Source of the DNA: a virus
Taxonomy: Duplodnaviria; Heunggongvirae; Uroviricota; Caudoviricetes
DNA: 50,417 nucleotides
IMG/VR virus record: IMGVR_UViG_2700989535_000003
Direction: 5' to 3' (one strand)
In this document: in pieces, positions 36,491 to 41,455 of the stretch
Position numbering within the stretch: position 1 is the stretch's first letter
How the letters are laid out: each line of letters begins with the position of its first letter
Made by a program: the position numbers and the translations under genes
The notes under the pieces: generated by a model
The model's database searches: none
Seen by the model: the letters and a program-made list of their open reading frames with translations, nothing else
What the model was told of the DNA's origin: nothing

Positions 36491-36646
36491 TTACTCCTCA
36501 GGTTCGTAAGCTGTGAAGACAGCGACCTCCGTCTGGCCGGTTCGGATTCGTACCTCGCAGAGGTCTTTCCTCGTTACCAGTGCCGTCACTATGACGGTTA
36601 AACAGATGACGATCAGGGCGATTAACATCGCCTTTTGCTGCTTCAT
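36491..36646 (-). CDS. hokD: Hok-family type I toxin HokD (RelF)
   Basis: Hand-translated 51 aa: MKQQKAMLIALIVICLTVIVTALVTRKDLCEVRIRTGQTEVAVFTAYEPEE; not in ORF track (below size cutoff). Confidence 0.85.
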   Translation of the reverse strand: MKQQKAMLIALIVICLTVIVTALVTRKDLCEVRIRTGQTEVAVFTAYEPEE

Positions 36647-36717
36647 AGCCTGCTTCTCCTGTCAACGCAAAGCAGAAGTGTCACCTTCGGTGCGAAACAG
36701 AGATGTCATGCTTTGGT

Positions 36718-37005
36718 TCAGAGAATGCGTTTGACCGCCTCGCTATATACTTCCGAGCGTTCTCTTTTCCCAACAGAAATCACGAAAACGACAACTTTCT
36801 CGTCTATAACCTGGTATACAAGGCGATAGCCTGAAGACCGGAGCTTAATCTTGTAACAATCAGGCATACCACGGAGCTTGTTTGCTTCAATCCGGGGTGA
36901 CTCAAGTACTTCAACCAGCTTCTTTTTCAACTGTTCACGTACCGTCGAGCCCAGCTTTCGCCATTCCTTTAGTGCCCGCTCGTCAAAATCCAGAAAATAC
37001 GCCAT
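36718..37005 (-). CDS. relE: Type II toxin RelE (mRNA interferase)
   Basis: 95 aa MAYFLDFDERALKEWRKLGSTVREQLKKKL...; start overlaps relB stop. Confidence 0.9.
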   Translation of the reverse strand: MAYFLDFDERALKEWRKLGSTVREQLKKKLVEVLESPRIEANKLRGMPDCYKIKLRSSGYRLVYQVIDEKVVVFVISVGKRERSEVYSEAVKRIL

Positions 37006-37244
37006 CAGAGTTCATCCAGCGTCACACGTACTGGCTTAGGATTACGAAGCCGTTCTTTCACTATCTCCACAAGTTCAGCATCTTCATCACTCAGGAGTGT
37101 CTGTTTGAACGGCAAGCGTTCATTGTCAGCGATATACTCGAGCATGAGACGAAGCGCTTCAGAAGGAGTTACACCCATTTTTTCAAGCGCGGCGTAAGAA
37201 CGCGCTTTAAGTTCATCGTCAATACGCAGGTTAATGCTACCCAT
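37005..37244 (-). CDS. relB: Type II antitoxin RelB
   Basis: 79 aa MGSINLRIDDELKARSYAALEKMGVTPSEALRLMLEYIADNERLPF... Confidence 0.9.
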   Translation of the reverse strand: MGSINLRIDDELKARSYAALEKMGVTPSEALRLMLEYIADNERLPFKQTLLSDEDAELVEIVKERLRNPKPVRVTLDEL

Positions 37245-38375: not shown

Positions 38376-39967
38376 AGGCTATTTACCATAACGCCTCATT
38401 ACGCGCACCGCCCAGACTGACTCAGCGCGTTTCTGGCATATCCCCAGTAAAACAAGTAACAAACCACCCGAAAATGAACACCAGAAACGCGACTTAAGAA
38501 TCTACCCTATGAATGGATATGCACTCAACCGAATCGATCTTGGTTTCAATCTTTTTTATCGGGATCAGGCTTCTTTTTAGGTAACTTCGGGGGCTTAACT
38601 TGCTGATGACTTTGCGTTCGGCGCGTAAGCCAGGGATGGTCAGCTTTAGGTTTAACATAGTATTTTGAGCGTAAATCAATACGGGCATTATCCACTCGTT
38701 CATGGACACTCTTTTCATCATCCAGTGGTATAGGCTCCGGGCCATCAACATACTTTTCCCAGCCCAGCGCTTTCCCGTCATACAGAACGTTAATTTCACC
38801 GTCAAAGTTCTCGCATACAGTAACAACCGAATGCCTAAGTCGATATCCCCGGCTCTCACTGCGTACCTGAAACGCACTGCTTTTGTACTGGAAAGTGAGA
38901 TTTTTAGACAGAACGCGCTTCGCCTGTAGGCTGAAGATATAACCCAGTTCCTCTTCAGAATGGTGCACATCAAGATGAGCATTATCAGTAGTACGAGGCG
39001 ACGTAGCGAACCGGTTGTTATAGGCTTCAATAAAGGTCGGCAACCATGCATTTGCTGTTTCAATATCACTGATATTCTGAAGCCGCATTTCTTTGACCAG
39101 CCTGTCCTGTAGTGTCTGATTGGCGCGCTCTACCCGCCCTTTTGCCTGCGGGCTGTTGGCATGGATTGGCTCGATGCCCAGTGTCTTTATCGCACGAGTG
39201 AACTGGGTCAGCTCACCTTCCCGCTCTGGGTTATTTACCCTGAATATACTGTGTCTATCAGAGTAGAGAGCGAGCGGTACGCCATGATCATTAAGGTAAC
39301 CCCGGAGGGTTTCCATGTAAGCCCGGGTTGTTTCAGCAGGCACAAAACGCAACGCCATCAACGCACTGGTGGCATCATCAATGAAAACGATCAGTGTACA
39401 TCTGGGGCCTCGATTTTCAAACCAGTCATGAGGTGAGCCATCAATCTGGATCAGTTCACCGTAAGATGGTCGTCGCATGCGGCGTTGATATATACGGGCA
39501 ATTTTACGACGGCGTTCACGCCATAACCCCTCTTCTATCATCCACTTTCTGAGAGTTTCAACGGATAAAGATAAACCGTGTATCTCGCGCAATTTTTCGC
39601 ACGCAAACGTAGGTCCAAAATCAGCGTAACGGCTTTTGAGGAGTGAAATTACTGTTGCTCTGAATTCAGTAGAAAAGGAATTATTAGGACGCTTTCCACG
39701 TCGGTGGGAAACCAGACCAGAAGGCCCTTCATTTCTATACCGTTGCACCAGACGTTTAACCTGCCGAATAGAAATGCCAATGCGTGCCGCAGCTTGTTCC
39801 TGAGTAATATGTCGATTAATTGACTCCTGAATAATCTGAAGTCGGTGGAGTTCCTTATGACTCATCGTAACAGTCTCTTTGATCATGAAAAATCCCCCAG
39901 AGAATTGTCTGGGGACATTTTAGAATGGTTCAAAGGGGACATTACAGCTTGGTGTTAACAAATAGCC
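38376..39967. mobile_element. Candidate insertion sequence (about 1.6 kb) with imperfect terminal inverted repeats
   Basis: Left AGGCTATTTACCATAACGCC (38376..38395) vs reverse complement of right end GGTGTTAACAAATAGCCT (39950..39967): 9 identical outer bases then about 6/8; encloses the DDE transposase. Boundaries approximate; no target-site duplication verified. Confidence 0.4.
38546..39886 (-). CDS. DDE transposase (N-terminal HTH + rve/integrase-core domain; IS481/ISNCY-like, family unresolved)
   Basis: 446 aa; HTH (ITQEQAAARIGISIRQVKRLVQRY) and integrase-core region with D..D..E-type spacing (QIDGSPHDWF..., LYSDRHSIF..., KGRVERANQTLQD). Confidence 0.75.
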   Translation of the reverse strand: MIKETVTMSHKELHRLQIIQESINRHITQEQAAARIGISIRQVKRLVQRYRNEGPSGLVSHRRGKRPNNSFSTEFRATVISLLKSRYADFGPTFACEKLREIHGLSLSVETLRKWMIEEGLWRERRRKIARIYQRRMRRPSYGELIQIDGSPHDWFENRGPRCTLIVFIDDATSALMALRFVPAETTRAYMETLRGYLNDHGVPLALYSDRHSIFRVNNPEREGELTQFTRAIKTLGIEPIHANSPQAKGRVERANQTLQDRLVKEMRLQNISDIETANAWLPTFIEAYNNRFATSPRTTDNAHLDVHHSEEELGYIFSLQAKRVLSKNLTFQYKSSAFQVRSESRGYRLRHSVVTVCENFDGEINVLYDGKALGWEKYVDGPEPIPLDDEKSVHERVDNARIDLRSKYYVKPKADHPWLTRRTQSHQQVKPPKLPKKKPDPDKKD

Positions 39968-40145
39968 TGCTTCTCCTTGCCTTTCGGCACGTAAGAGGCT
40001 AACCTACATGTGTCTAGCATGAAATTGGCCTCAGATTAATGTTAAGCGTCTTGCAGGACGCGTAATGTTAACTGGGGCTTTTCTCTATCTGCCGTTGGTG
40101 TTCATGCCCGAGGCAGATAGCCTCAAGCACCCGCAGCAATTTTAC

Positions 40146-40253
40146 TTAACTCCCTCTACCTCGCCAATCAGAAAATCGCTCCATGAAAGCAACAACAAGA
40201 CAATAAATTACCAGCACAGCCACAATAGCCAACACACACGTCAGAGCCAACAC
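40146..40253 (-). CDS. Small hydrophobic peptide (35 aa, single predicted TM); candidate membrane toxin/effector
   Basis: GTG start 5 nt after a perfect AGGAGG SD; translation (M)LALTCVLAIVAVLVIYCLVVAFMERFSDWRGRGS; about 170 nt downstream of the SIR2-like gene, same strand; palindrome GTATTGG-N6-CCAATAC just upstream of the SD. Confidence 0.35.
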   Translation of the reverse strand: MLALTCVLAIVAVLVIYCLVVAFMERFSDWRGRGS

Positions 40254-40423
40254 GATAACCTCCTGTATTGGACGTATACCAATACTGATAAATATGAGAC
40301 TGCCTCTTCAATGATTCAATACAACTATTGGGTGTTCATCTAAAGAATGAAATGAAGGTAAAGTGTATATTTCAGCTCAGCGAAGTTAGAACCGTATACT
40401 CTCGATACTAACTTCGCATTGTG

Positions 40424-41455
40424 CTACCAATTGATGAAGTCAGTGATGTTATCCAACATGGTTACAGTAACTTCCCGTCCTAACAAATATTGCCAGTATG
40501 CCTCACGGTCATTTTGTTCACCTGCACCGCTCCACTCAATTACTCTTAAATGCTTAGAGGTTAGGTAAGGCCGAATAAGCAGGTTAAGGTGTTCATCGAG
40601 GCCAGAATAACCAAACAGTATTATTTCTTCTGATTCAAATAATGCAAACTGCAAATAATCCCAGTACGTAGAAAGAACATTAGATGCTGCTATAACTGAC
40701 GGTTTCCTTTTTATATGCGTTAACACTATATGTTCGCTAGGCTCATCCCTGTCAACCGTAAGTTGAGAACGTGAAAGTTTTAAGACGGTCTCACCCTGAT
40801 TAACAAATAGTGGTGAGCCATGCAAATGCAAATAATAACCAAACCTACGATTATATTTCCGTTCGAGCGCTTCGGCGGAAAATCCGTGGCCTAACATCCC
40901 ATCAACCAGATACCCATCATACCCGCTGAATATATCATTATCTATGAATGAGTTGTATAATAATTTGTCATAGTTTAATGTCGCAATATGAGTGCGTGTA
41001 TTTTTTACAAATTCCACTAGCGCATTTTCGAATCTTTGCGGCAACCCTTCACCGTAATTATGCAAACTAGTTGCAACTTTGTGGATATAAGTGGCGGTGA
41101 TTTCGGGGAAGTTTAGTCCATCGTCAGTAAGCCAATGCTCGTTTCCTTCTCCAATTTGCGCAAGAGCCTTACAATATGTGATAGCTTGGTGAAGGGTATC
41201 CAACTCATGTTCCCCTGCCGGTGGACCTTGCCGCTGAAGACAACGTTCGATAAGTTGCTTATGGACATCGTTTAAGAAATTGGATCGATGCCAAATTTCT
41301 GCCAACGCCCTGTCTAAGGAAAAATGAGCAGGATCTAAAGCCATACCAAGACCGTTGCCGAATATTATTAATTTTCGTGCCATATAGGAGGACTCATGTT
41401 GGAATAATCTTGAGTAGCGTAACGCGATACGCCGCAGTTTGGAAGTAATATACAT
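40424..41455 (-). CDS. SIR2-like (SIR2_2-type) protein, candidate NAD+-consuming defence effector
   Basis: 343 aa; motifs IIFGNGLGMALDP (Gly loop), IATLNYDKLLY (TTNYD-like), YLHLHGSPLF (His motif), ILFGYSGLDEH; AT-rich context. Start may be the internal ATG at 41383. Confidence 0.55.
   Translation of the reverse strand: MYITSKLRRIALRYSRLFQHESSYMARKLIIFGNGLGMALDPAHFSLDRALAEIWHRSNFLNDVHKQLIERCLQRQGPPAGEHELDTLHQAITYCKALAQIGEGNEHWLTDDGLNFPEITATYIHKVATSLHNYGEGLPQRFENALVEFVKNTRTHIATLNYDKLLYNSFIDNDIFSGYDGYLVDGMLGHGFSAEALERKYNRRFGYYLHLHGSPLFVNQGETVLKLSRSQLTVDRDEPSEHIVLTHIKRKPSVIAASNVLSTYWDYLQFALFESEEIILFGYSGLDEHLNLLIRPYLTSKHLRVIEWSGAGEQNDREAYWQYLLGREVTVTMLDNITDFINW

Follow-up and report, generated by a model that had tools for sequence, protein, structure and literature searches.

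A divergent allele of an under-annotated prophage gene family, probably encoding a single-helix membrane micro-protein, at a hok promoter in Escherichia coli

Background

The small inner-membrane modulator peptides of Escherichia coli include KdpF (29 aa), MgtS (31 aa) and AcrZ (49 aa).

In E. coli O157:H7 Sakai, the 34-aa hypothetical protein ECs_5710 (YP_009502606.1) is encoded in prophage Sp6, at a distance of 189 nt upstream from the annotated mok/hok gene, and its identity with XECs145, which contains this ORF, was confirmed. XECs145 is predicted to be an inner-membrane protein with one transmembrane helix. Ribosome profiling showed it to be translated: in LB it had RPKM values of 79.1 (transcriptome) and 346.1 (translatome), with a ribosome coverage value (RCV) of 4.35 and a coverage of 0.99, and the corresponding values in BHI were 121.3, 150.1 and 1.14 (Huecker et al. 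2017, PMC5597208). Furthermore, GenBank holds 29-aa entries named 'membrane protein' or 'conserved hypothetical protein' (ACT39199.1 from E. coli B REL606, CDU35968.1 and GCZ25347.1).

Here we describe a small ORF in a stretch of 50,417 nt from a virus of the Caudoviricetes (IMG/VR record IMGVR_UViG_2700989535_000003), the whole of which is called the window. A first-pass annotation made from the sequence alone had seen in it an unannotated 35-aa transmembrane peptide with the general shape of a type I toxin, and had left out the hok/sok locus which the ORF abuts and whose promoter it overlaps. The 29-aa GenBank entries are referred to as type A proper, the form to which the window ORF belongs, and ECs_5710 as type B. 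The family is a real, under-annotated gene for a prophage membrane micro-protein. The window ORF very probably codes for a single-helix membrane peptide.

Sequence sets

Two samples of loci were used. The first consisted of 96 loci largely chosen by a peptide pattern; it is biased and inflates the apparent constraint within type A. Therefore a second sample was drawn by the hok 5' motif alone, giving 117 usable loci. The core of the type A/B family was defined as ALA-x2-AV-x3-YCL-x-V-x-LM(D/E)(R/H)(L/F), followed by two residues and a stop.

Results

The small ORF and its signals

The GTG start 5 nt downstream of AGGAGG and the 35 codons that follow were reproduced in position and spacing (Table 1), and so was the description of the peptide as little more than one hydrophobic helix, the highest Kyte-Doolittle value over 19 residues being 3.13. 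An AGGAGG followed by a start and at least 29 codons occurs six times in the window, against 1.6 +/- 1.3 cases in simulated sequences (first-order Markov). The sequence signal of the ORF alone is thus not significant, and its support comes from the homologues.

Table 1. Coordinates of the small ORF and of neighbouring features in the window.
Feature	Position	Strand	Remarks
Small ORF	40253..40146	-	GTG start, 35 codons and TAA; product MLALTCVLAIVAVLVIYCLVVAFMERFSDWRGRGS
Shine-Dalgarno AGGAGG	40264-40259	-	5 nt, then GTG at 40253-40251
Palindrome GTATTGG-N7-CCAATAC	40265-40271 / 40279-40285		perfect in the window lineage only; no covariation support
Putative weak promoter of small ORF	40319..40291	-	TTGAAT (40319-40314), 17-nt spacer, CATATT (40296-40291)
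Junction of 11-bp deletion	40165..40169	-	common allele TCTGATTGATTTCATATTGGCG, window TCTGATTGGCG
hok promoter TTGGCG-N17-TAAAAT	40167..40139	-	the only sigma-70-like promoter reported by the scanner; predicted hok mRNA 5' end at about 40132
hok mRNA leader with mok start and sok antisense gene	40132..39961	-	Rfam RF01794, 109.5 bits
IS1202-like (ISNCY family, ISEsa1-like) transposase	39886..38546	-	replaces the hokD coding sequence; end of element at about 39961
SIR2-family gene	41455..40424	-	upstream of the small ORF on the same strand; no terminator-like site between them

Codons 1-29 of the window ORF are homologous to the 29-aa type A product; the remaining six (30-35, WRGRGS) come from read-through into the hok promoter. 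In the window peptide the family core reads VLAIVAVLVIYCLVVAFMERFSD, its stop having been lost through the 11-bp deletion. The ORF has a Shine-Dalgarno sequence and start codon of its own, an arrangement which the homologues share; in nearly all of them the Shine-Dalgarno sequence is kept as AGGAGG, AGGAGA, GGGAGG or GGGGG. It also has the position of the family, in a lambdoid nin region on the O/ren/Q strand with the end just upstream of a hok promoter or the former site of one.

A putative promoter, TTGAAT-N17-CATATT, matches the consensus at 8 of 12 positions and falls under the threshold of the scanner, so it was not called. Its hexamers and 17-nt spacing are retained, by eye, in the diverged homologues L003, L005 and L007, in which the spacer sequences differ, and it is missing from the O55:H7 homologue. 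The best-conserved non-coding stretch near the ORF is the block CATATTTATCAG.

Two other frames were considered and rejected. A 47-aa frame at 40311..40168 (-) is likewise open across the region, with conservation below that of the main frame. A 92-aa antisense frame at 40065..40343 (+) is shifted by the 11-bp indel; the record of phage HannyBb annotates it as two hypothetical CDS, which we judged to be spurious.

Palindrome and leader

The palindrome next to the Shine-Dalgarno sequence had been proposed to sequester the ribosome binding site or to be a regulatory target, with a spacer given as six nucleotides; the spacer is in fact seven nucleotides long. The Shine-Dalgarno sequence is not part of the palindrome, which ends 1 nt before it, and the arms pair at 7/7 positions only in the window lineage and at 5/7 in the common allele. 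By our estimate, chance alone would produce about 0.7 such inverted repeats (7 nt, within 40 nt) over the 341 nt that were scanned. If the TTGAAT-N17-CATATT promoter is used, the palindrome would lie at the 5' end of the mRNA.

Compared with shuffled sequences, the leader folds gave z-scores of -0.34, -0.12 and +1.06, i.e. no better than shuffled, and RNAalifold on 18 distinct leaders found no shared hairpin at the palindrome. The only helix predicted by RNAalifold is a weak one in which five pairs, one of them compensatory, join the start codon to the Shine-Dalgarno region. A conserved RNA hairpin at the palindrome was rejected on the fold z-scores and the leader alignment, and the proposed regulatory role is unsupported, given the lineage-specific occurrence of the palindrome, its chance-level frequency and its lack of overlap with the Shine-Dalgarno sequence.

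Occurrence and annotation of type A

The type A product is normally 29 aa long, MLVLKCALAIAAVMAIYCLAVVLMDRLSD, and its stop is TGA. The 206 nt around the ORF were matched in 1904 of 5426 complete E. coli genomes with 71-90% identity, and the region is also found in four phage genomes. Scans of genome contigs and metagenomes gave Escherichia/Shigella-type sequences only, apart from three odd MAG contigs, and on the sequences scanned the family is a narrow one, of Escherichia/Shigella. These three are short contigs with type A ORFs (L092, L094 and L095) from MAGs named Collinsella, Candidatus Scatousia and Haemophilus, and are most likely mis-binned E. coli prophage DNA.

Beneath the 206-nt match no RefSeq feature was present in the 39 best-covered of the sampled records. 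The remark that standard annotation would miss the ORF holds for what is very probably a genuine coding sequence. The term 'unannotated' is right for RefSeq records with the window allele; elsewhere in the family, the 29-aa forms occur sporadically in GenBank and type B is ECs_5710 in the current Sakai RefSeq record. The exact 35-aa window peptide is absent from a collection of 15 billion proteins, and phmmer with this peptide gave 0 matches among 1.84 billion representatives. Searches of Pfam, NCBIfam, PHROGs and PADLOC with types A, B and C (type C is described below) returned chance-level transmembrane matches only, and no paper was found by a full-text literature search for the peptides and locus names.

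Coding constraint in types A and B

The 96 loci contain 24 distinct ORF DNAs, all of them open. On a neighbour-joining tree, the parsimony changes at codon positions 1/2/3 numbered 22/19/35. Of the codon changes, 33 were synonymous; the 39 others altered the residue, mainly by hydrophobic-for-hydrophobic exchange, and A/V, V/I, L/F, D/E and R/H made up most of them. One homologue has an in-frame deletion of 3 nt and ATG instead of GTG. In the hok-motif sample 30 loci carry type A, and the ORF is intact in 30/30.

The hok-motif sample also yielded type B (34 aa, MSDDISLAMEGALAVIAVVGVYCLVVFLMDRLGN), which we take to be a paralogous type. Over the core of 23 codons, which are the last 23 of type B, types A and B have 65% nucleotide identity with 14/23 identical amino acids, a dN/dS of 0.23 and differences of 8/4/12 by codon position. 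Random placement of the same number of substitutions did as well in 42 of 20000 trials (p ~0.002). With this p-value and the dN/dS of 0.23, we conclude that the family is under purifying selection; the frame, whose preservation in homologues the first-pass annotation had named as a check, is intact in the independently ascertained loci. Translation in growing lysogens is shown for the type B relative, and the window allele, which has 11/23 core residues identical with type B, would be translated too. The supplements of the EDL933 translatome contained no match.

It is extremely improbable, in our view, that the conservation belongs to the DNA or RNA, the stretch being, for example, an element upstream of the hok promoter or a piece of a longer hok transcript, and the open frame being incidental. 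The ORF does end in the hok promoter, within type A the conservation of the non-coding flanks is about equal to that of the ORF, and the 47-aa frame is open too. However, between types A and B it is the peptide that is kept, with 12 third-position against 4 second-position changes; the alternative frames reach only 9-11/22 identical residues, below the main frame, and frame 1 has stops. Moreover, the ORF persists without hok in 26/84 loci, hok promoters work with entirely different upstream sequence in 38/117, and the type B relative has a ribosome-profiling signal.

The 11-bp deletion and the state of the window allele

The 11-bp deletion is specific to the window lineage, lies between ATTG direct repeats and takes out the TGA stop of the family. 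Because of this loss, the frame continues for six codons into the -35 region of the hok promoter, which gives the tail WRGRGS. The deletion probably arose by slippage, and the removal of hokD by the IS, described below, would have been the later event. The usual tail of the family is ...LMDRLSD, and a tail made by a lineage-specific deletion is no family feature; the basic tail which had been listed among the toxin-like traits is thus, in its last six residues, a deletion artefact.

The window allele is the most diverged type A sequence seen, with a dN/dS of ~0.75 against the type A consensus and differences of 4/5/4 by codon position, and given this unusual divergence it may be under relaxed constraint. 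It is also rare, with 16 records at >=99% identity among the 1904 carriers; these 16 are 99.8-100% identical, come from unrelated sources, and have hokD intact in 11 cases.

The family could therefore be genuine and the window allele a decaying or neutral relic, with no functional product since the 11-bp deletion and the loss of hokD. The dN/dS without an excess at third positions, the replaced tail with the native stop gone, the rarity of the allele and the absence of the exact peptide from the protein collection all fit such a relic. Nevertheless, frame, GTG, AGGAGG and the complete hydrophobic helix have been preserved. At each of the nine core replacements the new residue is again hydrophobic or of like charge, and the allele still has the motifs Y-C-L and M-E/D-R. 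The near-identity of the allele in 16 records of unrelated sources, 11 with intact hokD, speaks against decay as well, and we regard the relic as unlikely, while giving it some weight.

The hok/sok locus and the upstream slot

The window ORF overlaps the hok promoter with its final seven codons and its stop. The hok leader breaks off at the 'AT' of the hokD ATG, which is where the IS1202-like element starts. By cutting off hokD there, the element has left behind the hok promoter as an orphan, together with the mok start and the sok gene. Strains that are 100% identical over the leader stretch carry hokD after the leader. The hokD/IS junction is also present in five other genomes with 99.8% identity, and an IS-joined version of ~89% identity is found in others (H17-H30). 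A second hokD, intact and coding for 51 aa, lies at 36491-37244 (-) of the window in the K-12 Qin order relB-relE-hokD, followed by rem, ydfU and Q, and retains only ~15 nt of hok leader. Thus the window has one hok without a leader and one leader without a hok, 3.3 kb apart, with ydfV, flxA and the IS between them.

The gene order O-like, DUF977/ren-like, cargo, small ORF, hokD, rem, ydfU, Q is that of a lambdoid nin region. In other strains the slot upstream of the small ORF holds an nSTAND1 NTPase, DUF2326, QueH, hypothetical or other genes. Since the upstream gene varies while the small ORF stays, the ORF travels with the hok side and not with SIR2, and a role as partner of SIR2 was ruled out. 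The SIR2 gene itself (40424-41455, -) stands alone, with a Pfam SIR2_2 match and weak PADLOC matches to Aga_SIR2, SIR2 and PDC-S21; the slot that it occupies, flanked by the ren-like DUF977 gene and the small ORF, has the look of a hotspot for prophage defence and cargo genes. Just past the SIR2 stop there is a 15-nt inverted repeat (40380-40417; 87% complementary, 8-nt loop, no T-run), which belongs to the SIR2 cargo segment and not to the conserved module of the small ORF.

A tiny transmembrane ORF of type A, B or C, ending 36-71 nt before the hok transcript start, was found at 79/117 of the hokD-type prophage loci sampled by hok. Five hok loci retain only the last codons of type A, and the remaining 33/117 'other' loci have no intact ORF of types A, B and C; hok promoters with entirely different upstream sequences make up 38/117. 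Type A was found with no hok leader downstream in 26/84 loci. ORF and hok are therefore separable in both directions, and we read their adjacency as synteny within a mosaic module.

Type C has 27 aa (MTWPEAFTTVGIAMAVALVVYSICRWG or MIWPEAFAITGVAIAIDFLVYVICRWG) and is apparently unrelated to types A and B. It occurs in Sakai Sp6 (L216 1544-1627) and in loci among L096-L215, where it precedes either hok directly or the type B ORF, and it falls below the length that most gene callers accept. The start codon and the stop of the gene before it overlap (ATGA), a hint of coupled translation. A perfect palindrome of 22 bp, CGATATGGGAATTCCCATATCG, lies at L216 1776-1797 of Sakai Sp6 between the type B stop and the hok -35; no T-run follows it on either strand, and it is retained where the ORF itself has been replaced.

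The small ORF has also been considered as a partner of Hok, i.e. a membrane peptide tuning Hok or conferring immunity to it, or a second effector released together with Hok. The 79 loci with a tiny transmembrane ORF before the hok transcript invite such a reading. Against it, ORF and hok separate both ways, ORF types A, B and C all pair with one hok leader type, and neither the hokW-sokW study (PMC8621323) nor the survey of Hok diversity (10.1101/2025.08.07.668861) reports a need for upstream sequence, so we hold a partnership to be very unlikely. The slot upstream of prophage hok promoters is recurrently filled by at least two unrelated kinds of tiny single-helix ORF (A/B and C), and on a wider version of the idea their peptides would act as Hok companions, for example modulators or immunity factors that time killing or phage release. 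We give this little credence; if true, a toxin-antitoxin system believed to be under RNA control only would have a level of control by protein as well.

The question of a type I toxin

As a type I toxin, the small ORF would have its mRNA restrained by an antisense RNA and/or by leader structure. The window peptide is short, prophage-borne and a single hydrophobic helix, and lies beside another type I system; being a small hydrophobic membrane peptide is the type I feature that it has. In the common allele, a promoter-like site on the opposite strand, TTAACT-N18-TAAAAT, would send an antisense transcript through the ORF. It was read at L005 1670-1699 (-) and in the same place in other type A loci, and is directed backwards from the hok promoter.

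However, the antisense -10 is TAAAAT in just 61/158 loci and a poor TGAAAT in 94/158. The site falls within the 11 bp deleted from the window, where the scanner reports no promoter on the opposite strand; the search for an antisense promoter, which had been suggested as a check, thus comes out negative for this allele. The only Rfam match is the sok of hok, the leader z-scores and the alignment at the palindrome given above indicate no conserved structure, the Shine-Dalgarno sequence is strong and the predicted leader is short. Furthermore, translation of XECs145 in exponentially growing cells is efficient, which would not be expected of a tightly silenced toxin and by analogy argues indirectly against strong toxicity of the small ORF. 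Neither Hok nor any toxin family is similar to the peptide, and a degenerate duplicate of hok was rejected at an hhalign probability of 0.7%. With no antitoxin RNA, no fold hiding the Shine-Dalgarno sequence, no likeness to Hok and a tail that is a deletion artefact, the toxin shape attributed to the peptide is not supported. The type I toxin reading of the window ORF is unsupported and, in our assessment, distinctly unlikely.

Discussion

With confidence somewhat above even, we favour the explanation that the window ORF is a divergent allele of a conserved micro-protein gene of lambdoid prophages, and that its product acts as an accessory or modulator peptide in the membrane and not as an RNA-repressed toxin. 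The product would form one inner-membrane helix with, in the family, the short polar C-terminus LMDRLSD. It would be transcribed rightward with the nin region, from its own weak promoter or by read-through from the SIR2 gene or pR, and translated from its own strong Shine-Dalgarno sequence. The peptide may then serve as a small accessory or modulator in the membrane in the manner of AcrZ, MgtS and KdpF. To judge by the invariant Y-C-L in mid-helix and the LMDRL motif, a specific partner is more likely than unspecific pore formation. Modulation of a membrane partner is the most likely mechanism on the conservation pattern and by analogy.

Several observations weigh against this explanation. The ribosome-profiling signal concerns a relative with which the window allele shares 11/23 core residues. 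The allele has a dN/dS of ~0.75 and has lost its native stop. Finally, the putative promoter matches at only 8/12 positions and is absent from the O55:H7 homologue.

About one third of the complete E. coli genomes contain the gene, and none of the carrier records examined has it in its RefSeq annotation. No Pfam, NCBIfam, PHROG or PADLOC family includes it, although its type B relative is demonstrably translated. The ORF marks the conserved right-hand border of a prophage cargo or defence slot, filled by SIR2 here and by an nSTAND1 NTPase, DUF2326 or QueH elsewhere. As the ORF overlaps the hok promoter, work in which 'hok-sok' is deleted or cloned may take the ORF along or truncate it unnoticed. 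For the window, the type I toxin look of the tail is a product of the deletion, and much of the local signal is accounted for by hok/sok, its true neighbour.

Comparison with known systems

The GenBank 29-aa entries are the same gene at the same locus as the window ORF, with 52-72% identity over 28-29 residues; the window allele differs from them by the 11-bp deletion and the 6-residue extension.

Hok/Gef peptides (PF01848), including that of the neighbouring hokD, resemble the window peptide in being small, hydrophobic and prophage-encoded with a cysteine in the helix, and the two are adjacent. The window peptide nevertheless gave no Pfam match to them at E<=1 and the hhalign probability stated above. 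It is also ~20 residues shorter and is devoid of a periplasmic C-terminal domain, and its gene has no mok-type coupled translation, no sok-type antisense RNA and no fold-back leader.

KdpF, MgtS and AcrZ are like the small ORF in size, in the single transmembrane helix and in having their own Shine-Dalgarno sequence, and the constitutive translation of the type B relative without harm to growth agrees with such peptides. They differ in that they have no homology to the small ORF (chance-level matches only) and in that the latter is carried on a prophage.

Another of the closest described systems is ECs_5710/XECs145. It has in common with the window ORF the core ALAxxAVxxxYCLxVxLM(D/E)R(L/F) plus two residues (then the stop in the family), the location immediately before a hok promoter within a lambdoid nin region, a strong Shine-Dalgarno sequence of its own and a single predicted transmembrane helix. 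The N-terminus is MSDDISLAMEG in ECs_5710 and MLALTC in the window peptide, and the 22-bp palindrome separates the type B stop from the hok promoter in Sakai, whereas the window ORF runs into the promoter.
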